Source: a virus | Reading direction: 5' to 3' (one strand) | Virus genome (UHGV): UHGV-0125767 | Length of the DNA stretch: 43,378 bases | Part shown: one piece after another, positions 3,006 through 24,659 of the stretch | Numbering within the stretch: the first letter of the stretch is position 1 | Layout: each line of letters opens with the position of its first letter | Position numbers and translations under genes: made by a program | Notes under the pieces: model-generated | The model's input: the letters and a program-made list of their open reading frames with translations, nothing else | What the model was told of the DNA's origin: nothing | Databases searched by the model: none

Positions 3006-4298
3006 TTACGTAAGTATGCTAAGTTTATTCTGCCTCATGTCACGCTCTAAGGCGTATCTAGTGGCGTCTATCGTATGATTGTCTTTATCCTCTAATCTCG
3101 GTTTAACGTTGCCGTCTTTGTCAGTTTCATAGTCGATATTCTCAAATTCTCTCGCTATATTAGGTGTTCTGTTAGGATCTATCACAATAGCTGTTAAATC
3201 ATCAAGCCATTGTTCCCCGTGTTCTACACTGTCAGGACCTTTTTTCACACCTTTAATTCTCTTGATACCGTGTTCTTGTTTCAGCTCTGCAATCGACTTC
3301 GGTTCAGCGCTATCTGCGAATATATCATCTGATTGATAGCCTCTACGTTTTAACCAGTTAGCAAACTCTCTATTGCTTATTTGTACACCATAGTGTTCAT
3401 CAACTGCATAGATAATACGTTTCTTCTTATCATAGTGCCAACGTACAAATGCTAGTGGATCAGTAGCATAACCAAAGTCAACTGCATTACGTATATTATC
3501 GAATGTCTTGTATAAGTCATCAGGTATCTTCTCTATTTGCAAGTTGTTAAACGGTACAACGCCACTACCAATAGCTTCACCCATATATTCCCAACGATAA
3601 CGTTGTTCGTTACGTTCTTTAGCACTCTCTGCCTCTTGTATAAACTGTTTAGAGATAAAAGGGTTATCTAAGTACGTTGAATGATGTACGAATGTGTTAT
3701 CTGGTTGGAATGAGGTTTCATATTTTTTATTAACCCACGATTGTTTTCTCTTAGGTGGGTTATAACTAAAGAAAAACTTATAAAATAATCCGTCATCTAA
3801 TTCACCACGTAACATAGAGTTAGTAATTGTCGTAACTTCATCTTCTGTCTTAAATTCTGCTAACTCCTCTATCCACATGATAGAAAAAGGGAACCGACTA
3901 TCTTTTAACGACTTTAATCGTTCAGGGTTCTGCGCCCCTCTAAAGATAATCCGATTCCCTCTAGGAACATACGTGATTTCCATTGGCGACACTTTAACTT
4001 TGAACAGGTGTGACACCTTTTGTTCTTCTATCGCCCACTTAATTTGCTCAAATACTGATGTAGCTAGTGTATTGTCTGTCTTACGTACTACAACTGCATT
4101 CATAGGATAGCGCATGATTAACTGTGTAATGATGATAGATATATCAGACGACTTACCACTACCACGTCCACCTTTAGCTACTATGTTAAGCTTCTCTCTA
4201 TCTTTAGTTGCTTTCCATAAGCTATGGAAGTGTTTAGGTAACAGTTCAGATAGGTTAATCGATATCGTCATTGAACTGTACCGTCGCAGTCGTTTCAA
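3006..4298 (-). CDS. terL: terminase large subunit
   Basis: 430 aa; N-terminal ATPase region (AKGGRGSGKS Walker A-like) and C-terminal nuclease region; follows TerS. Confidence 0.85.
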   Translation of the reverse strand: MKRLRRYSSMTISINLSELLPKHFHSLWKATKDREKLNIVAKGGRGSGKSSDISIIITQLIMRYPMNAVVVRKTDNTLATSVFEQIKWAIEEQKVSHLFKVKVSPMEITYVPRGNRIIFRGAQNPERLKSLKDSRFPFSIMWIEELAEFKTEDEVTTITNSMLRGELDDGLFYKFFFSYNPPKRKQSWVNKKYETSFQPDNTFVHHSTYLDNPFISKQFIQEAESAKERNEQRYRWEYMGEAIGSGVVPFNNLQIEKIPDDLYKTFDNIRNAVDFGYATDPLAFVRWHYDKKKRIIYAVDEHYGVQISNREFANWLKRRGYQSDDIFADSAEPKSIAELKQEHGIKRIKGVKKGPDSVEHGEQWLDDLTAIVIDPNRTPNIAREFENIDYETDKDGNVKPRLEDKDNHTIDATRYALERDMRQNKLSILT

Positions 4299-4689
4299 TT
4301 TGTTGCTTGTCTGTCCACATCATATATCGTTTACCTAATAATTCCGCAGCTTTCGTTCTAGCGTTAGTATCTGATCGTTTTTCCAAAGACTCTACTTCCA
4401 TTTCACCTTTACCAATTCCAATCGGTATGAGTTCTTGATCTGTTACCTCCCCACGTAATACAGAGGTGAGATATTGAAGTATTTCATCTTGGTCTGCAAT
4501 TGAATCTTTTTTCAGTTTTTCCATTCGTTTGTCTATTTCTGCTTTTATTCCCACATTTTCCAACAATTTATGACTACTTGATTTTGCGTATTTCTCACTA
4601 TAACCAGCCCTGATTGCCGATTGATAAGCAGTACCTGTCTTAATGTACTCATCAACAAATGCTTGTTGTTTAAGATTCAGTTTCGTCAT
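4255..4689 (-). CDS. terS: terminase small subunit
   Basis: 144 aa, MTKLNLKQQAFVDEYIKTGTAYQSAIRAGYSEKYAKSSSHKLL... HTH-like N-terminus typical of P27-family TerS; 44-nt overlap with terL. Confidence 0.75.
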   Translation of the reverse strand: MTKLNLKQQAFVDEYIKTGTAYQSAIRAGYSEKYAKSSSHKLLENVGIKAEIDKRMEKLKKDSIADQDEILQYLTSVLRGEVTDQELIPIGIGKGEMEVESLEKRSDTNARTKAAELLGKRYMMWTDKQQIETTATVQFNDDID

Positions 4690-5195
4690 CGTATATTACC
4701 ACCTACTCTCACGGTTAAGCACCTTTATTTGACGTATAAAAAAAGACACTGCATAAACAGTGCCTAATGATTATGTTTTGTTATTTATTTGAGTTTATGT
4801 ACTCATGTCACATCTCTATGTCACATCAATACATAAAAAAGTTACCCGTGTGTTCTCACGGATAACTAACAAGAAAGACAAAAAAAGCTATATTACAAAC
4901 TAATTAAACATAAGAAGTATCACTGTGCTTCTATATATGGTGATATAAAAGACGATACTGATGAAAATGGTAATGAATATAAAATTCATATTTGTAAGAT
5001 TCAATAAAACTACCCGCCACTCTGACGGATAGTTAAGCAATCGGATGTGCAACGTCTAATCAAGGACGATAAACACTTATCCAATCACTTCGATATTGAA
5101 TACCTCACCATAGTGCGAAAGGATAAACACTATGTCTTGTGAGGTAATTCTTACACATTCATTATATAAAATTAATATATCCTTTGAAAAATACT

Positions 5196-5228
5196 GTCAT
5201 TTCGGTCATTTTCGTCATTATTGTCATT
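5196..5228. repeat. 4 x GTCATT tandem repeats with 9-bp period at the 3' end of the 133-aa gene
   Basis: GTCATT at 5196, 5205, 5214, 5223 (gtcatttcg/gtcattttc/gtcattatt/gtcattgca). Confidence 0.5.
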
Positions 5229-5625
5229 GCAATAAATAAATCTTTTCTGCTAACTCATCTTTGCGTGCTAAAAAATTATTTCTATTCAATTTAGCATTAG
5301 GCATCTTTTCTATTATCTTATCTCTACGTCTGCCTTTCTTGAGGTGTTCTAGAAAACAAAAATCAACATGCCCTAATTTTTGTTGAGATTGATTGATGAA
5401 CTCAACTTCTTTTAACATTTGTGCGTATCTTTTATTTGTTCTTTCTAATCTAATTACTACATCTTCAACTTTACTGCCGTTTTCTCCTTGTGGTTTAGGT
5501 AACGTAGCTTGTATCCCATATTGTGCTATAGAATTACTATCACATTCAGGTACTACATCCTCTAAGATATTACAATTCATTTTATATCCATCAATCATGT
5601 TTAATATAGATGCTTTTGAATACAC
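5224..5625 (-). CDS. hypothetical protein; positional candidate for late-gene transcriptional activator (RinA/ArpU/LtrC class). GTG start
   Basis: 133 aa, basic C-terminal half (KKGRRRDKIIEK), last gene before the long noncoding region upstream of terS; no sequence-level match to phi11 RinA recalled. Confidence 0.25.
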   Translation of the reverse strand: MYSKASILNMIDGYKMNCNILEDVVPECDSNSIAQYGIQATLPKPQGENGSKVEDVVIRLERTNKRYAQMLKEVEFINQSQQKLGHVDFCFLEHLKKGRRRDKIIEKMPNAKLNRNNFLARKDELAEKIYLLQ

Positions 5626-5631
5626 TAAATA

Positions 5632-5772
5632 TTACCCTCCATTCTCCAACTTATCTTTCAAAGTCTTAATCTCATACTCTTTCACTTCTAACTGATGTTT
5701 TAGATCATTCTGTTCAAGCAATGAGCCAAATAGTAGTAAAACTAATATAATGATTGCTATTACGCCCCACAT
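5632..5772 (-). CDS. 46-aa single-TM peptide (MWGVIAIIILVLLLFGSLLEQNDLKHQLEVKEYEIKTLKDKLENGG)
   Basis: ATG at 5772 preceded by AGAGGTGG SD 8 nt upstream; N-terminal TM helix then coiled-coil; overlaps stop of upstream gene. Confidence 0.35.
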   Translation of the reverse strand: MWGVIAIIILVLLLFGSLLEQNDLKHQLEVKEYEIKTLKDKLENGG

Positions 5773-6158
5773 TGTTTGACCACCTCTAAATTAGGTTTGT
5801 GTTCTAGTACACGTCCGTTAAAACTACATGCATCTTCTTTAGCTGAATATAAATCGTCGTAAGATAAAGCTTCAAATACATTGTCAGTGATTATGCATGT
5901 GTTTCCATAACTACCTATATATTTTTTCACTAAATATACTCCTTTTTTTAACTCAACCACGTATTTGCCTATGTTGTTTTTATTATCCTTATTTTTCAAC
6001 CAAGATACCTCTCTTTCTAAATGTAACTTATCTAATTGCAATCCATGTTTATCTTCCTGTAACTCATTAACTCTTTTCTCTGCTTTAATCCACTTATATA
6101 TAGCAAAAATACACAGTACTAACACAATTATTACCGATGAAAAACTTATCCAAATCAC
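5760..6158 (-). CDS. membrane-anchored hypothetical protein
   Basis: 132 aa, N-terminal TM segment then charged coiled-coil. Confidence 0.35.
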   Translation of the reverse strand: MIWISFSSVIIVLVLCIFAIYKWIKAEKRVNELQEDKHGLQLDKLHLEREVSWLKNKDNKNNIGKYVVELKKGVYLVKKYIGSYGNTCIITDNVFEALSYDDLYSAKEDACSFNGRVLEHKPNLEVVKQCGA

Positions 6159-6159
6159 A

Positions 6160-6360
6160 TTAATAACCTCCTAAAATCCCAAAATATAAAAAGTGTAAAA
6201 ATAGCAAGATAGAAAGTAAAAACATGGTAACGGAAAACCCAATCGTTACATATTCCTTGTATTTAATTCCTTCAACAAAAAGATATATTATAAATATCTC
6301 CATTAAAACAAAGACTATAGACAATGTTATAATTGTAATCATATATATAATTTCACCCAA
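6160..6360 (-). CDS. small 2-TM membrane protein
   Basis: 66 aa, two hydrophobic helices. Confidence 0.35.
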   Translation of the reverse strand: MGEIIYMITIITLSIVFVLMEIFIIYLFVEGIKYKEYVTIGFSVTMFLLSILLFLHFLYFGILGGY

Positions 6361-6363
6361 TAT

Positions 6364-6534
6364 TTAATAACCTCCGTATATGCCATTTAAATGAGCGTGG
6401 TCATTCTCGTCAAAGTCCTTAGGCACTTCCACCTCATCATTTGCAGTTAACTTATAATAAACTTCTCTGCCAATCCATTTGCCCAACTCATACATTGCGA
6501 TAGTAAACCAAATCTTTAATATTCGTTTAATCAA
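6364..6534 (-). CDS. rinB: RinB-like small transcriptional regulator (TTG start)
   Basis: 56 aa ...IKRILKIWFTIAMYELGKWIGREVYYKLTANDEVEVPKDFDEN..., resembling recalled phi11 RinB (..LLAMYELGKYV..TANDDVE.P.DF). AAGGAG SD 8 nt upstream of TTG. Below the 60-aa ORF cutoff so absent from the track. Confidence 0.5.
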   Translation of the reverse strand: MIKRILKIWFTIAMYELGKWIGREVYYKLTANDEVEVPKDFDENDHAHLNGIYGGY

Positions 6535-6582
6535 CCTGCTCACTCCTTACCTAATATTCTTTTAATCTCTGCTACTATTTCT

Positions 6583-7134
6583 TTAGAATCCTTTTGATCC
6601 AAAGCCTTGCTCTCCTCTTTCTGACCCACTGCTAAACTCCTCTATTTCTTTTAACTCTGGTGTCCAAATAGGTACGATAACGAGTTGTGCGAGTTTGTCG
6701 CCTTTTTTAATGACATAACTTGTGTTTCTTGGTTTAAAAATATCTAGCGGATTAGAGCTTTGCTCTTCAATTGGTTCGTTAAAGCTTCCGTCATCGATTA
6801 TTTCATTTTTTATATCTTTATAGATAAATTCATCTGCATCTACTACTTCAATATCATTCTTAATATTAATCTTCATATTACCTTGAAAACCTGCGTCTAT
6901 CTTGCCTGTTTCAATCACTAAATGTGTTTTACTACTTACACCACTTCTTGACGTTAATAGCCCTACATACCCCTCTGGAATGTTCACAGCAATGTCTGTT
7001 CTAATCGTTGCTTTCTCTTGAGGCTCAAGTATTACTGTTTCTGCCGAATAGATATCGTACCCAGCATCTAATCTATCTCTCTTCGGCATAGTCGCATTTT
7101 CTGTTAATAATTTAATTTCTAGTTCTTTAGTCAT
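6583..7134 (-). CDS. dut: dUTP pyrophosphatase (trimeric phage Dut with extra motif insert)
   Basis: 183 aa; AGYDIYS, LLTSRSG, GKIDAGFQG motifs of dUTPase; insert region as in staphylococcal phage Duts. Confidence 0.85.
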   Translation of the reverse strand: MTKELEIKLLTENATMPKRDRLDAGYDIYSAETVILEPQEKATIRTDIAVNIPEGYVGLLTSRSGVSSKTHLVIETGKIDAGFQGNMKINIKNDIEVVDADEFIYKDIKNEIIDDGSFNEPIEEQSSNPLDIFKPRNTSYVIKKGDKLAQLVIVPIWTPELKEIEEFSSGSERGEQGFGSKGF

Positions 7135-7324
7135 TTATTGTTCCTCCATTTTCTACTAAACTCTTTGAATTATTTTCCACTATTTTGTCGTACAACTCTG
7201 CCTTGCGATATACTTCGTTAAGCTCTTTGATTAGTAAACACCCATCGTGTCCTGTAAAAGCTGTAGATGATACTATGCAGCGTTGGATAAACTCTCTATT
7301 GTCCATTGCAAGCCTCCAAATCAC
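7127..7324 (-). CDS. hypothetical protein
   Basis: 65 aa ORF in tightly packed overlapping early gene string. Confidence 0.3.
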   Translation of the reverse strand: MIWRLAMDNREFIQRCIVSSTAFTGHDGCLLIKELNEVYRKAELYDKIVENNSKSLVENGGTIND

Positions 7325-7568
7325 TTAATAAATTTTGAAACTCATGCGTTCCGTCTAGTTCGTCCATGTATTTTAAATCTCGATTTAATTCGTTTTTAAT
7401 TACCATTGCGTTAGCTATTTGAAATAAATGATACTGATTGTTAGGTTTTATAATTTGATTTACTGAGCGATGTACTTTCATATATTCTTGTAACTTCTTT
7501 CCTTTCAACTCTAGCCATGCACGTTTATATTCTTTATCCTTCACGTTTGGTCTCCTTGTAATTATCAA
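7296..7568 (-). CDS. hypothetical protein
   Basis: 90 aa; overlapping gene string. Confidence 0.3.
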   Translation of the reverse strand: MIITRRPNVKDKEYKRAWLELKGKKLQEYMKVHRSVNQIIKPNNQYHLFQIANAMVIKNELNRDLKYMDELDGTHEFQNLLSDLEACNGQ

Positions 7569-7818
7569 TTATTTGAAATACATAAGCTGTGAACTCTTTT
7601 GCCCAACAGTCTTCCTCTGCCGTTTCCAATATCTCATCAAACGCCTCTGCCTTCTTTTTAATTTCTGCCATATCATTGATGAGTTCATCACGTTGTTTCT
7701 TGTATGAGTCACGTTCATCTCTGAACTTCCACCAATCACTACGCGGATAGCTTTCGTCTAAATCTAAGTCTTTATTCTTGATAAATTCTAATAATTGTTC
7801 TTTAGTTATTTCTGCCAT
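7534..7818 (-). CDS. hypothetical acidic protein
   Basis: 94 aa, D/E rich (DLDLDESYP..., AEEDCW). Confidence 0.3.
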   Translation of the reverse strand: MAEITKEQLLEFIKNKDLDLDESYPRSDWWKFRDERDSYKKQRDELINDMAEIKKKAEAFDEILETAEEDCWAKEFTAYVFQIIDNYKETKREG

Positions 7819-8026
7819 TCCTCATACACTCCCTATTCTTTCTTATATTCTCTTTTTCAACTTTCATCGTCACTCTGCTTCCCGCTACTTTAACCACAAA
7901 GCCTTTAACACCTATCTGTCGTAATTCCTGTTGTATCTGGGTAGGTGTCTTGCCTTGTGTGTTGTATTTGTAACGTTGGTTGATAGTTGAGGATAATTCT
8001 AATGTGCTAGTTGTCATTTTCATCAT
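7802..8026 (-). CDS. hypothetical small basic protein
   Basis: 74 aa. Confidence 0.3.
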   Translation of the reverse strand: MMKMTTSTLELSSTINQRYKYNTQGKTPTQIQQELRQIGVKGFVVKVAGSRVTMKVEKENIRKNRECMRNGRNN

Positions 8027-8255
8027 CGTTTACATATAAGTCTTTGAATATATCTTTGTCTGTTTTTAAACAAGTAATATTACCACCAGTTACTTGTACA
8101 TTTAATTTTCTTTCATCGTCATCATCTTCTTCTAATCCAATTTGCATATAAGCAGATGGAGTTTGTAGTAAATATGTTTCTTTTTCTAAATCTAATTCTT
8201 TTCCTATTTTTTCTTTAATTTCTTTAACTGCTTGTTCTACAAAATCCATTATCAT
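8007..8255 (-). CDS. hypothetical strongly acidic protein
   Basis: 82 aa with EEDDDDERK and DDENDN runs. Confidence 0.3.
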   Translation of the reverse strand: MIMDFVEQAVKEIKEKIGKELDLEKETYLLQTPSAYMQIGLEEDDDDERKLNVQVTGGNITCLKTDKDIFKDLYVNDDENDN

Positions 8256-20380: not shown

Positions 20381-20395
20381 AAGGGGTGATGAATT

Positions 20396-21765
20396 ATGAA
20401 CGTAGCTATTTACGTTCGTGTCAGGTCAGTACATTAGAACAAAAAGAGCACGGTTATTCTATTGAAGAACAAGAAAGAAAGCTCAAATCATTTTGCGAGA
20501 TAAACGACTGGAGTGTATCGGACGTATTTATCGACGCTGGTTTCTCTGGTGCTAAACGTGAGAGACCAGAGTTACAACGTATGATGAAAGATATTAAAAG
20601 ATTTGATTTAGTCTTAGTGTATAAGTTAGATAGACTTACACGTAATGTACGTGACTTATTGGACTTACTAGAGATATTTGAAAAGCATAATGTAGCGTTT
20701 AGAAGTGCGACTGAAGTTTATGATACTTCTACTGCTATGGGGCGACTGTTTGTTACATTAGTTGGTGCTATGGCAGAGTGGGAACGTGAAACAATTAGAG
20801 AACGTGTGATGATGGGTAAACGTGCAGCAATTAAGCAAGGTATGATACTTACACCACCACCCTTTTATTATGATCGTGTAGATAACACTTACATTCCTAA
20901 TGATTATAAAAAAGTAGTTTTATGGGCATACGACGAAGTGATGAAAGGTAATAGTTCAAAAGCTATAGCTAGAAAATTAAACGATTCAGATATACCACCT
21001 CCTAATGGTAAAAGATGGGAAGATAGAACAATAACAAGAGCGCTAAGAAGTCCTATAACAAGAGGTCATTATACTTGGGGAGATGTATTTATAGAAAACT
21101 CTCACGAGCCTATTATTACCGAAGAAATGTATCAACAAATAAAAGAAAGATTAGAAGAAAGAATCAACACTAAAATAGTAAGTCATGTATCAGTATTCAG
21201 AGGTAAATTTATTTGCCCAAGATGTGGTGGTACATTAACACTGAATACAACAACAAGAAAGAGAAAGAAAGGTTATGTTACCTATAAAACGTATTATTGC
21301 AACACATGTAAAGGTAAAAAGAAGAGTTTCGGTTTTGCAGAAAATGAAGCATTAAGAGTTTTTCATGATTACCTATCTAAATTAGACTTAGAAAAATACG
21401 AAGTAAAGACAAAACAAAAAGACGATGTCGTTACCATTGATATAGACAAAATCATGGAACAACGTAAAAGGTATCATAAATTATATGCTAAAGGGTTAAT
21501 GCAAGAAGAAGAATTATTTGAATTGATTAAAGAAACAGACGAAATAATCGCAGAATATGAAAAACAAAAAGAATTAGTGCCAAGCAAAACACTAGATGTA
21601 GATAAAATAAAAAATTTTAAAAATGTATTGTTGGAATCATGGGAGATATTCTCGTTAGAAGATAAAGCAGATTTTATTAAGATGGCTATTAAGTCTATCG
21701 ACATAGAATATGTAAAACTTAAAAACAGGCATTCTATTAAAATAAACGATATAGAATTTTATTAA
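20396..21765 (+). pseudogene. int: large serine recombinase (TP901-1-type integrase) with N-terminal frameshift. Native start MNVAIYVRV at 20396 behind an AAGGGG SD; a 5-bp tandem duplication (GTCAG GTCAG, ~20417-20426) shifts the frame after codon 9
   Basis: Frame A reads ATG AAC GTA GCT ATT TAC GTT CGT GTC AGG ... TAG. Frame B continues ..QVSTLEQKEHGYSIEEQ..YKLDRLTRNVRDLL... with the full resolvase domain, recombinase domain and zinc ribbon (CPRCGG...CNTC). Confidence 0.8.
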
Positions 21766-22470: not shown

Positions 22471-22494
22471 TTGTTTGGGATGAGACGGTTTTTA

Positions 22495-22590
22495 TTATTT
22501 TAAAATTAAAATTGCTATATTGATTAATGCTAATACGATCGTCGCTATCATTAAGATTAATGTTATGCTTCTAATAGTTTTACTTGTCAT
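22495..22590 (-). CDS. 31-aa hydrophobic peptide B (MTSKTIRSITLILMIATIVLALINIAILILK)
   Basis: ATG at 22590 preceded by GGAGGTG SD with 6-nt spacer; tandem stop codons; predicted single TM helix. Confidence 0.35.
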   Translation of the reverse strand: MTSKTIRSITLILMIATIVLALINIAILILK

Positions 22591-22618
22591 AATTAACACC
22601 TCCATAATATAATGAGGT

Positions 22619-22636
22619 AAAGGGCTTTCGCCCTTT
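22619..22636. terminator. GC-cored hairpin AAAGGGC-tttc-GCCCTTT between the two peptide ORFs
   Basis: perfect 7-bp stem; T-rich run follows on the plus strand only (cctatttta), so it would act as a terminator for plus-strand (antisense) transcripts or as an RNA stability element for the minus-strand mRNA. Confidence 0.4.
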
Positions 22637-22637
22637 C

Positions 22638-22751
22638 CTATTTTAGTAGCGTTACGATGATTGAAATGATTTGAATAATAAGTCCTGCTAAAGCTATTAT
22701 CATCATTCTTTTGTCGTGACGCTCTTTTTTTATTCTCCGTTTTCGTCTCAT
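22638..22751 (-). CDS. 37-aa basic-N-terminus/single-TM peptide A (MRRKRRIKKERHDKRMMIIALAGLIIQIISIIVTLLK)
   Basis: ATG at 22751 preceded by AGGAGGTGAGGGG SD; stop abuts the hairpin. Confidence 0.4.
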   Translation of the reverse strand: MRRKRRIKKERHDKRMMIIALAGLIIQIISIIVTLLK

Positions 22752-22770
22752 CCCCTCACCTCCTAAATAT

Positions 22771-22799
22771 ATTATAGCTCATTCGAACTATAAATTCAA
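22771..22799 (-). promoter_or_regulatory. consensus sigmaA promoter TTGAAT-17-TATAAT driving peptide A (and probably B and downstream genes)
   Basis: minus-strand -35 at 22794-22799, -10 at 22771-22776, SD begins ~8 nt after the -10. Confidence 0.45.
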
Positions 22800-22930
22800 C
22801 ACTTTTTTGCTTTTTCTTAAATTAATTTCACTTTTTTTACATAAAAAAATAACCACGCTCAAATGAACGTAGTTTAGAATATAGTATTAGTTTGGAATCA
22901 GGAACAAAGACTATTATACAATAAAAAATA

Positions 22931-22951
22931 GGGTAGCCATAGCGACTACCC
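22931..22951 (-). terminator. rho-independent terminator after endolysin
   Basis: GGGTAG-ccatagcga-CTACCC stem followed on the minus strand by UAUUUUUUAU; same stem sequence as the terminator at 20343. Confidence 0.5.
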
Positions 22952-22980
22952 TTGTATAATGACGTGGTAATTTAATTATA

Positions 22981-24384
22981 TCATTTCCAGTCTATTTTAC
23001 CCCAATATTTCTCATTTTTTATTTTTTGTTGTTTATCTGTAATTTTACAAACGGCACAATAGAAATGTTTATTACTTGAGCCTGGCTGAACATATTTAAA
23101 TCTAATCCACCAGTACCCATCTTTTTTGATGACTTGGTCGAAAGGAACATAATTCCCCTTGTATAACCACGAACCACTTTCAACTACAGTACCTTTAAGT
23201 CCAGGTGACTTACGTACTTTAATAGTACTGTTAGCAGTGAATTTACCTACCCAGTTCCACGTTGTTTTAATTTTAGACGGCTTACTCTTAGGCGCATTGA
23301 TTTGTCTACCGTTGATAGCCTCTGCAAGTCGTTTAGTAAAACTGTTGATGTTCTTAGTGATATAGTCCATGTCTTTTTTACTAGTGATAAAACCTAACTC
23401 AATCAATCTGTAATTTAAATTGAGTTGGCCTGTAACGTTAGCATTTAATAAATCGTTTCTAGGTGTTACACCTCTAATTTTACCAACCGTCTTACCTAGT
23501 GCGCTAGATAACGCTTTGTCTATATCATCTGCAGGATACCTGTCACTTACAATGACATGACCACCACTTGCTTGAGGACTTGCAGCGTCTAAGTGGAATT
23601 CTACAATTATATCAGGTTTAACATTCTTTTTAACCCAATATAAACCATAATCTGAATAGTTACCTACACGTTGTCCATATAACGTATCTTGATACAAGTC
23701 TTGATTCATTGATTTGCCACCGTATAAAACAACTTTATTACCTACACTTTCAAGATGTTTCTTTATTCTAGGAATAATTTCTTTTCTGTTAAAATCACGC
23801 TCATTATATCCATTTGCTACGGCACCAGGATCATTTGAATAAGCGCCTTTACCGTGACCTGCAACAAGTAAAATTTTCTTACCTTTCTTAGCTTTCGCTT
23901 TCTTAACTGGTTTAGCTTTGCTTTTAACTTTGTTTTTAGTCGTTTCTTTAGCATAGAACGGTCTAATAAACCACATAGGGAAATCGTAGCCATGTGTACG
24001 TCTTGTAGTAACTTCAGGAGGTGTCCAATACGCACCGCCAACCCAATTTTGCTCCAGTATAGTTATAGAGTTAGAAGTAGCAGAAATAACGATACCTACG
24101 TGACCATAACCCCCACCATAATTTCTATTGAATATTACAACATCTCCAGGCTTAGCTAAAAATGATAGTGTATTCTCATAAACAGTAGCTTCTCCTGTAA
24201 AATTGTTCCATGTCGGAATATCTGCAGCACCTACACCTTTTAAAGTATGACCGAATAAATAAAGCCAATATTGGTTAGCTACGTCGAAACATTGAAAACC
24301 ATAAGCACCGTCAGGGTTTAACGCTTTGCCCTCTAAACTTTTTAAATATGAAATTGATTGCTTATATGTTCTAACAGATACCAT
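22981..24384 (-). CDS. endolysin: CHAP endopeptidase + Amidase_3 + SH3b cell-wall binding domain
   Basis: 467 aa; CHAP Cys/His (GFQCFDV, GHVGIV), central amidase (LLVAGHGKG...[12 protein letters not shown]), C-terminal SH3_5-like (WNWVGKF...GYWWIRFKY). Confidence 0.9.
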
Positions 24385-24659
24385 TAGAAATCATCTCCAT
24401 TCGTTTGAGGCGCACCACCTGTAGAATTTGTTCCAGCTTTAACTTCATGTAACTTTTGTTGTCCTTTTTGCGCTGCGTGAGAGAAGTTATTATTTTTCCA
24501 CCAAGTCCATAAAGACACTGCACCAGTGATAATAGAGCTGATAGTCACTTCATCTACTGGAATAGGCGAAATGTTTTTAGTAGCTAAAAATTGGTTAACC
24601 CAAGCTAAAATAAATACGATTGTTCTTACAATTGAACCTACATCTGTTTTCATACTCAT
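24384..24659 (-). CDS. holin
   Basis: 91 aa, two TM segments and charged C-terminus, directly upstream of and overlapping the endolysin start. Confidence 0.8.

Follow-up and report, generated by a model that had tools for sequence, protein, structure and literature searches.

What function could be served by two very short hydrophobic open reading frames (ORFs), divided by a GC-cored hairpin and followed by a small helix-turn-helix (HTH) gene, at the lysin-to-integrase end of a staphylococcal prophage? The question is raised by the minus-strand cassette at positions 22495-22800 of the UHGV virus genome UHGV-0125767, a stretch of 43,378 nucleotides (nt) referred to here, at its full length, as the window, which is 99.9% identical to vB_SepS_48 (MW364972.1), a temperate Staphylococcus epidermidis phage of the genus Rockefellervirus and itself an induced prophage. 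The cassette lies downstream of the holin and endolysin genes, faces the integrase gene and makes up the front half of an operon on the minus strand of vB_SepS_48, with a first peptide gene (pepA), the hairpin, a second peptide gene (pepB) and the HTH gene in that order. The reading preferred here, held with somewhat less than even confidence, is that it constitutes a type I toxin-antitoxin (TA)-like module nested in the leader of an anti-CRISPR-type operon. The minus-strand features listed in an earlier sequence-only reading of this DNA (the promoter, the Shine-Dalgarno (SD) sequences, both ORFs, the hairpin, the tandem stops and the HTH ORF) are all found in the sequence, and the pepA SD AGGAGGTG does follow the -10 box, although it begins 6 nt past it and not the roughly 8 nt first given.

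Two small peptides in staphylococcal prophages

The pepA product consists of a polybasic N-terminus (MRRKRRIKKERHDKR) and a C-terminal hydrophobic helix, and the Kyte-Doolittle maxima over 15 residues reach 2.8 for pepA and 3.1 for pepB. The features of type I systems compiled in T1TAdb include a peptide of 20-60 amino acids (aa), sequestration through SD/anti-SD pairing and 5'-3' long-distance interactions (PMC8594479), and both pepA and pepB are hydrophobic peptides of this size, each with its own SD. Neither peptide had appeared in the ORF track available to the first reading; the GenBank record likewise lacks pepB, while pepA is annotated there as gp48_29.

Module loci were gathered by distant BLASTN and protein-anchored searches, and the same arrangement, in which a cationic peptide with a helix at its C-terminus precedes a hairpin, a short hydrophobic peptide and an HTH, was recovered from more than 20 distinct staphylococcal prophage loci. 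These comprise the phages IME1318_01 (S. haemolyticus), PhiSepi-HH1 (S. epidermidis), vB_SpsX-DS3 (S. pseudintermedius) and PMBT9 and about 20 further unique prophage loci, with a host range that includes S. epidermidis, S. aureus, S. pseudintermedius, S. haemolyticus, S. hominis and others. The spacing is near-fixed: measured from the HTH start codon, pepA occupies about -280 to -165 and pepB about -120 to -25. The aligned module DNA has a mean column identity of 58%. A DNA-pattern scan of viral contigs with the motif of the spacer between pepA and pepB (the A-B spacer), in which most matches were due to chance, yielded after filtering at least five true modules among the matches listed, each followed by an HTH gene.

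The ratio of nonsynonymous to synonymous divergence (dN/dS) stays under 1 in each informative pair, both for pepA (0.06-0.53) and for pepB (0.10-0.69 in divergent pairs), these being rough estimates from very short genes, and the transmembrane-helix character is kept across very divergent peptides. Between the window and locus L018, dS is 0.40 in pepA versus 3.93 in pepB, such that the synonymous divergence of pepA is depressed. Judged by sequence conservation, pepA and pepB are genuine genes for small membrane-type peptides. The same comparisons bear on the simplest alternative, that the AT-rich intergenic DNA between lysin and integrase contains small ORFs and hairpins merely by chance. Promoter-like sites in this stretch do occur at chance frequency (9 observed; 9.5 expected in shuffled sequence), but synteny, spacing and structure are conserved despite the low identity, dN/dS is below 1 and the fold z-scores described below are about -5.6 to -5.8, so that the explanation is improbable in the extreme and is refuted by the comparative data.

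Neither peptide had been recognised as a member of a known family, and this impression held: pepA and pepB have no significant match in Pfam, NCBIfam or PHROGs, PADLOC returned no match for any of the four proteins compared or for a long relative of the HTH, and an Rfam scan of both strands with E up to 10 gave best matches of E 0.7-3.5, far below the gathering scores. The plasmids searched contained no similar DNA.

The two peptides differ in how often they are disrupted. pepA is frameshifted or truncated in modules that are otherwise intact (loci L006, L020, L022 and L026, and the decayed copies L009b and L021b), and in a widespread S. aureus chromosomal copy beside glnA it has shrunk to MRR-stop while pepB and the HTH are intact. 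In L020 and L022 the Lys-codon run of pepA holds seven A's versus eight (L021 for comparison), and frameshifts of this kind in the poly-A run may be due to decay alone or to on/off switching by strand slippage. No locus examined has a disrupted pepB or HTH, in a set that was gathered by way of the HTH. The fold-back helix described below has likewise decayed, to 7 base pairs (bp), in the most degraded copies (L006, L009b and L021b). Because of this repeated loss by frameshift and of the control architecture set out in the next section, pepA most likely encodes a toxic membrane peptide. As a separate observation, the run in which the frameshifts fall (codons 4-9; 22725-22740 in the window) also encodes the U-tract of a predicted antisense terminator.

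Two variants of the arrangement were also encountered. A second module family (L013, the second HTH of L015, L046, L053, L073, L079 and L090) carries different first peptides. In L005 (PMBT9, 2487-2792), L010, L012, L066 and L069 a 30-aa amphipathic peptide leads, and the second is a pepA-like 'KTNKKERIxG plus transmembrane' peptide adjoining the next gene, which in L005 is an AcrIIA13-type gene.

Predicted RNA structures over the pepA start codon and coding region

In the window, GGGAUGAGACG (22754-22744), with the pepA AUG inside it, is the exact complement of CGUCUCAUCCC (22487-22477), and the resulting 11-bp helix, here H1, forms when the 312-nt transcript is folded to its minimum free energy (MFE; -70.6 kcal/mol; z, -5.6). 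In 20 of 24 unique loci the pepA start codon falls within a helix of 11-18 bp, the sequence of which differs by locus, for example GAAAUGAACCGAA / UUCGGUUCAUUUC, GAAAUGAGGCGAAA / UUUCGCCUCAUUUC and GAAAUGAACCGAGUCGA / UCGACUCGGUUCAUUUU. As a helix-length count allowing G-U pairs proved too permissive (shuffled sequences reach 19 bp), duplex energies were used for H1, and as MAFFT left the helices out of register, both on the whole module and on the A-B spacer, per-locus folds and anchored duplex calculations took the place of the alignments; duplex folding over wide intervals was noisy. The cognate duplexes range from -15.8 to -28.1 kcal/mol and are better than all 1000 shuffles (P < 0.001) in 12 of 12 loci, and the cognate arm is the best partner in its row for ten of the 12, the exceptions being close relatives that share the helix sequence. 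H1 is thus kept through compensatory changes between loci, and the start codon of pepA is sequestered in silico by a 5'-3' long-distance interaction of the kind known from type I systems.

The partner arm of H1 has a consistent position with respect to the next gene. In 17 of 20 loci it ends 5-10 nt ahead of the codon at which the HTH starts, and the HTH gene is without an SD in loci with H1, while in the helix-free loci L049, L079 and L090 it has an SD of its own. A 'split SD', in which H1 would bring the pepA SD to the HTH start, is not favoured: the summed spacing varies from 8 to 15 nt with no compensation.

The second structural element is the GC hairpin, which follows the pepA stop codon in all loci with differing sequences. 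In the window it is flagged by a scan as terminator-like on the plus strand with the tail CCTATTTTAG, and the sequence-only reading had proposed that the hairpin could end a plus-strand antisense RNA over pepB, with a constitutive moron promoter driving the two peptides. The tail, however, is present only in the close relatives of the window and absent in L003, L004, L027 and others, there is no plus-strand promoter below 22579 in the scanned region and none downstream of pepB, only 6 nt separate the hairpin from the end of a conserved promoter on the plus strand, and the sense promoter carries an Aca-type operator-like repeat (see below). This geometry is accordingly very improbable. Since the plus-strand T-tail is not conserved and a conserved promoter stands just upstream, the hairpin is here read as the predicted start of an antisense RNA over pepA and not as the end of one over pepB.

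The antisense promoter is, at 11/12, the best promoter match in the region. A conserved motif in the spacer that separates pepA from pepB, CATTATA, reads TATAATG on the plus strand, and TTGTCA is the reverse complement within the ATGACAA of pepB. Among divergent loci, 19 of 20 have a plus-strand promoter of 10-11/12 with 17-nt spacing (shuffle P, 0.001-0.035 per locus), whereas the best on the sense strand in the same loci reaches only 6-9/12. The second module family has an antisense -35 box, TTGAAA, in the conserved GGAGGTTTTCAAnnATG spacer of its second peptide.

The RNA predicted from this promoter spans pepA codons 7-37, the pepA stop codon and the hairpin. It opens with the GC hairpin as its 5' stem-loop; a linker of 9 nt then leads to a closed hairpin of 81 nt and finally to U7 (22725-22731), the complement of the pepA Lys-codon run. 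Its MFE is -33.1 kcal/mol (z, -5.8). The same architecture occurs in 11 other main-family loci (112-121 nt, with a closed hairpin of 67-86 nt; z, -3.5 to -8.4), with closing-stem sequences that differ, and the long hairpin gains on average 3.8 kcal/mol of stability in the antisense over the sense orientation (Wilcoxon p, 0.011), with a gain in 10 of 15 and a clear loss in none. As a side observation from the Rfam scan, the SIB_RNA antitoxin model has a sub-threshold match at 22584-22710 on the plus strand (17.9 bits versus a gathering score of 56; E, 1.5), which has the strand and place of the predicted antisense RNA yet is statistically at chance level.

The conserved spacer motif ACCTCATTATA..GGAGGTG further holds an anti-SD-like ACCUC together with the pepB SD, and this ACCUC, directly past the hairpin, may pair with the GAGGU of the pepB SD. 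The cassette could instead be mainly a riboregulatory leader of aca/acr (anti-CRISPR-associated and anti-CRISPR) genes, in which the small ORFs are translated leaders whose ribosome traffic opens and closes the helices, the antisense RNA keeps the anti-CRISPR operon silent in lysogens and the peptide products matter little. The HTH gene is SD-less exactly where the fold-back helix exists, with the 3' arm so close to its start, the pepA stop codon abuts the hairpin, the anti-SD faces the pepB SD, and Acr expression needs tight repression, Aca2 also acting on RNA (as cited in PMC12658196). A leader of this kind does not account for dN/dS below 1 and for a transmembrane-helix character retained in very divergent peptides, and the modules with a frameshifted pepA are otherwise intact, which indicates that translation of pepA is not required for downstream expression. 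The leader reading is unlikely on balance, at perhaps one chance in several.

The repressor, its candidate operator and the anti-CRISPR setting

The 73-aa protein had been called HTH-like, and this is substantiated by profile, model and structure. It corresponds to the N-terminal third of the PHROGs profile phrog_1529 (E, 1e-19), and its AlphaFold2 model (predicted local distance difference test (pLDDT), 91) has as best PDB matches the N-terminal domain of AcrIIA15 on palindromic DNA (8jfr, 8jfu and 8jfo) and Aca11 (9lx2), with 40-45% identity and a root mean square deviation (rmsd) of 1.0; phmmer likewise retrieved AcrIIA15 (E, 1.3e-7) and Aca11 (E, 2e-5). While the HTH in the window is unfused, in other phages the same pair of peptides precedes longer relatives of 195-202 aa, in which the HTH is joined to the C-terminal, Cas9-inhibiting domain of AcrIIA13 (7eni; E, 2e-54) or to the C-terminal domain of 8k4m, as in L004 and L002. 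The HTH is a member of the Aca11 / AcrIIA13-15 N-terminal repressor family, which it joins together with its promoter, and the cassette is the front of an anti-CRISPR-type (aca/acr), probably self-repressed operon.

As single promoter matches occur at chance frequency in this DNA, the case for the operon promoter rests on conservation in related loci, 18 of which have an equivalent promoter of 9-11/12 upstream of pepA. Its spacer contains a 9+9 bp inverted repeat (TTATAGTTC-gaat-GAGCTATAA), and most of the 18 loci have a repeat of locus-specific sequence at the equivalent promoter position, its arms being 9 bp long in about a dozen of them. AcrIIA13-15 share an N-terminal HTH that binds to inverted repeats located at the promoter of the operon (Watters et al., PMC7104187), AcrIIA15 represses itself through IR2 between -35 and -10 (PMC10901769), and Aca11 binds a 22-bp inverted repeat that overlaps its own promoter (PMC12658196). 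The repeat in the window has the position of AcrIIA15 IR2 and of the Aca11 repeat and, by analogy, is a candidate operator of the Aca-type HTH. Given an Aca-type HTH homologous to self-repressing AcrIIA15 and Aca11 and a repeat at the position typical of the family, the promoter is very probably autorepressed, and its earlier description as the constitutive promoter of a moron, in a reading that had overlooked the link to anti-CRISPR genes, has to be given up. Upstream of the -35 box (22800-22850, minus strand) there is also an A-rich tract (…GTAAAAAAAGTGAAATTAATTTAAGAAAAAGCAAAAAAGTG) with the palindrome AAATTAATTT, similar in close relatives, which could be an UP element or a counterpart of AcrIIA15 IR1; its sequence is unlike that of the spacer repeat. 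Terminator-like hairpins are enriched in the region (3 observed versus 0.3 expected).

An uncharacterised 'GF5 gene 1' lies upstream of AcrIIA13 in the same operon, where it served as a guilt-by-association seed, and it gave no Cas9 inhibition in transcription-translation (TXTL) reactions (PMC7104187). It is probably one of the peptide genes described here. The anti-CRISPR setting suggests a further alternative, that pepA and pepB are non-toxic small membrane proteins co-expressed with Acr/Aca genes and are effectors themselves, blocking for instance a membrane-associated defence or excluding superinfecting phages, with the RNA elements tuning amount and timing. Purifying selection acts on both peptides, they are strictly linked to an anti-defence-type regulator, pepB is never disrupted in the loci examined, and anti-defence genes are known to cluster in Aca-controlled operons (PMC7104187 and PMC12658196), all of which would suit effectors. 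Multi-layer silencing aimed at the start codon and coding region of pepA would be unusual for a harmless effector, as would the recurrent loss of pepA alone, and the TXTL result for 'GF5 gene 1', probably one of these peptide genes, also speaks against an effector. We consider harmless effectors an unlikely account, of about the same standing as the riboregulatory leader.

Directly downstream of the HTH, gp48_31 has no PDB, Pfam or PHROG match and belongs to a single protein cluster of 51 contigs, of which the named ones are all S. epidermidis; by position only, it is a possible candidate for an anti-CRISPR or anti-defence payload. Elsewhere, tandem arrays of three or four Aca-like HTH genes occur in L215, L009, L021, L024 and L025. 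The L215 array (3500-8210) is located on the S. aureus chromosome downstream of glnR-glnA, its first HTH is preceded by a decayed peptide module and the HTH protein is present in 162 contigs (S. aureus where named). The region has the look of a fixed island of aca-type regulators left behind by a phage. The features of the window are collected in Table 1.

Table 1. Features at the lysin-to-integrase end of the window; coordinates refer to the whole 43,378-nt stretch
Feature	Position	Strand	Details
Holin gene	24384-24659	-	
Endolysin gene	22981-24384	-	
Terminator-like hairpin 3' of the endolysin gene, upstream boundary of the cassette	22930-22952	-	10-bp stem, then ATTTTTTATT
Second terminator-like hairpin, upstream of the cassette promoter	22851-22874	-	10-bp stem, then ATTTTTTTAT
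Operon promoter TTGAAT-17-TATAAT	22771-22799	-	10/12
Inverted repeat TTATAGTTC-gaat-GAGCTATAA, candidate operator	22772-22793	.	In the promoter spacer, overlaps the -10 box
pepA SD AGGAGGTG	22757-22764	-	At or near the mRNA 5' end; read from the sequence
H1 helix, 5' arm GGGAUGAGACG	22744-22754	-	Contains the pepA start codon; MFE fold and multi-locus duplexes
pepA, 37 aa, putative toxin	22638-22751	-	Homologues in many loci, dN/dS, recurrent frameshifts
GC hairpin AAAGGGC-GAAA-GCCCTTT, 7 bp	22619-22636	.	One base past the pepA stop codon
Predicted antisense small RNA (sRNA), about 113 nt	22620-22732	+	Fold and conserved promoter
Anti-SD-like ACCUC, complement of GAGGU in the pepB SD	22614-22618	-	Putative pairing
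Predicted antisense promoter TTGTCA-18-TATAAT	22584-22613	+	11/12; -35 box overlaps the pepB start codon
pepB SD GGAGGTG	22597-22603	-	Read from the sequence
pepB, 31 aa, hydrophobic	22495-22590	-	ATG at 22590, stop at 22497-22495, second in-frame TAA at 22494-22492
H1 helix, 3' arm CGUCUCAUCCC	22477-22487	-	6 nt upstream of the SD-less HTH start codon
Aca-type HTH repressor gene, 73 aa	22249-22470	-	Profile, model and structure matches
gp48_31, small acidic orphan ORF, 73 aa	21906-22127	-	Position only; operon membership uncertain
Serine-recombinase integrase gene	20386-21765	+	

Proposed mechanism and comparison with known systems

On the type I TA-like reading the cassette would be controlled at several levels. 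A dimer of the HTH, to judge from its homologues, would bind the spacer repeat and turn the operon off. In a first RNA layer the full-length mRNA would bury the start codon of pepA in the 11-bp H1, in the manner of the hok and aapA1 mRNA fold-backs, and in a second the predicted plus-strand RNA of about 113 nt, starting at the GC hairpin and ending with the long hairpin and the U7 in the Lys-codon run, would be fully complementary to the 3' four-fifths of pepA and could block or destroy the pepA mRNA. pepB may be a partner membrane peptide, the translation of which would melt the 3' arm of H1 and, more speculatively, could feed ribosomes to the SD-less HTH start. The leader of pepA and pepB thereby combines the structural features listed in T1TAdb (PMC8594479), the antisense RNA being predicted. 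Of the type I TA-like character first suggested for this DNA, RNA control is plausible, and better supported than that first reading could tell, in light of the conserved antisense promoter and the start-codon fold-back.

Several points weigh against this reading. The long hairpin forms in the sense mRNA too, and the strand-asymmetry test applied to it used limits set on the antisense fold, which introduces some bias. The antisense promoter is a match of chance frequency that rests on conservation among related, non-independent loci, and the structures were not recovered when RNAalifold was run on antisense RNAs aligned with MAFFT, an alignment that is out of register. No peptide or RNA match was found to the known type I families searched (Fst, Ldr, Hok, TxpA, SprA1, SprG, Ibs/Sib and others), and the layout of pepA, with a polybasic N-terminus and a C-terminal helix, is the reverse of that in many type I toxins. 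To our knowledge, no described type I system places its toxin gene first in an operon that also codes for a repressor protein. Finally, 'GF5 gene 1', probably one of the two peptide genes, was cloned and expressed with no toxicity reported (PMC7104187).

An extension of the type I TA-like reading would make the long-range helix a translational toggle that couples a membrane toxin to the control of anti-CRISPR genes. As long as the mRNA is folded, pepA would be silent and only the downstream aca/acr genes read, whereas ribosomes finishing pepB would melt the helix and release pepA, with the antisense RNA setting the threshold. The toggle appears rather improbable, more so than either the effector or the leader reading. 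If true, the anti-CRISPR cassette would be self-addictive or abortive, such that loss of Aca repression or of the antisense RNA kills, and it would be the first TA-type module inside an acr operon and provide the first function for the 'gene 1' beside AcrIIA13-15.

As far as the literature searches reach, the peptide-plus-RNA leader is undescribed. At the keyword level, the Acr/Aca papers PMC7104187, PMC10901769, PMC12658196 and PMC13147308 make no mention of the two peptides, the antisense promoter or the fold-back helix. AcrIIA13-15 and the Aca domains have been structurally studied and used as Cas9 off-switches, and native AcrIIA13-15 operons appear to begin with two conserved membrane-peptide genes, a predicted cis-antisense RNA and a start-codon fold-back, which would give a well-studied anti-CRISPR family a control layer that has gone unrecognised and may be an addiction module. 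Should pepA be a toxin, the modules would represent a new and widespread staphylococcal type I-like family that links TA addiction to anti-defence loci; if it is not, the elements still reveal a post-transcriptional layer in the control of anti-CRISPR operons of Gram-positive phages.

The closest relatives by repressor are the AcrIIA13/14/15 operons and Aca11 of Staphylococcus and Streptococcus, to which the cassette is tied by the HTH and by window relatives fused to the AcrIIA13 C-terminal domain. Like the AcrIIA15 operon, the window promoter has an inverted repeat between -35 and -10, as in the AcrIIA13-15 loci the cassette lies on a mobile element after the lysin gene, and in the AcrIIA13 operon the uncharacterised 'gene 1' likewise stands ahead of AcrIIA13 (PMC7104187). 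Unlike those operons, the window HTH stands alone, with no verified Acr in the window, and its recognition-helix residues differ (S25/Q26/K31 versus S/Y/A of AcrIIA15), differences that fit the different operator sequence.

By location, the srn_9342-9346 cluster of the S. aureus phage phiNM2, with overlapping sense and antisense sRNAs and a 33-aa peptide with a hydrophobic C-terminus that has been proposed as a TA system (PMC5496865), occupies the same niche just after the phage amidase gene, whereas its peptide, unlike the cassette, is on the strand opposite to the amidase gene. It was rejected as a homologue, the post-amidase region (L094, 2474-3146) being unrelated and without pepA, pepB or the HTH. 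The lysin-to-att (attachment) junction of staphylococcal phages is seemingly a recurrent site for modules of small RNAs and peptides.

Among Gram-positive type I systems, the cassette resembles SprG1/SprF1, SprA1/SprA1AS, TxpA/RatA, BsrG/SR4 and YonT-YoyJ/SR6 in having a small hydrophobic prophage peptide and a structured toxin mRNA, and such systems have a convergent cis-antisense RNA on the 3' side that overlaps the ORF, a feature which here is predicted (PMC8594479). It differs from them in sharing no peptide or RNA homology, in having pepA lead an operon that also encodes a repressor protein and in placing the predicted antisense RNA inside the operon, between two cistrons. A relationship to SprG/SprF was rejected, with no link by location or sequence. 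A locus with two peptides under one antisense RNA has a precedent in yonT-yoyJ/SR6.

The nearest parallel to H1 is provided by hok/Sok and AapA1/IsoA1, in which a long-distance 5'-3' helix likewise sequesters the translation-initiation region of the toxin (concept, PMC8594479). In those systems the 3' partner is the 3' end of the mRNA and is removed by processing, whereas the 3' partner of H1 is intercistronic and directly upstream of the next, SD-less gene, which suggests that the activation of pepA could come from ribosomes finishing pepB and not from trimming of the transcript.

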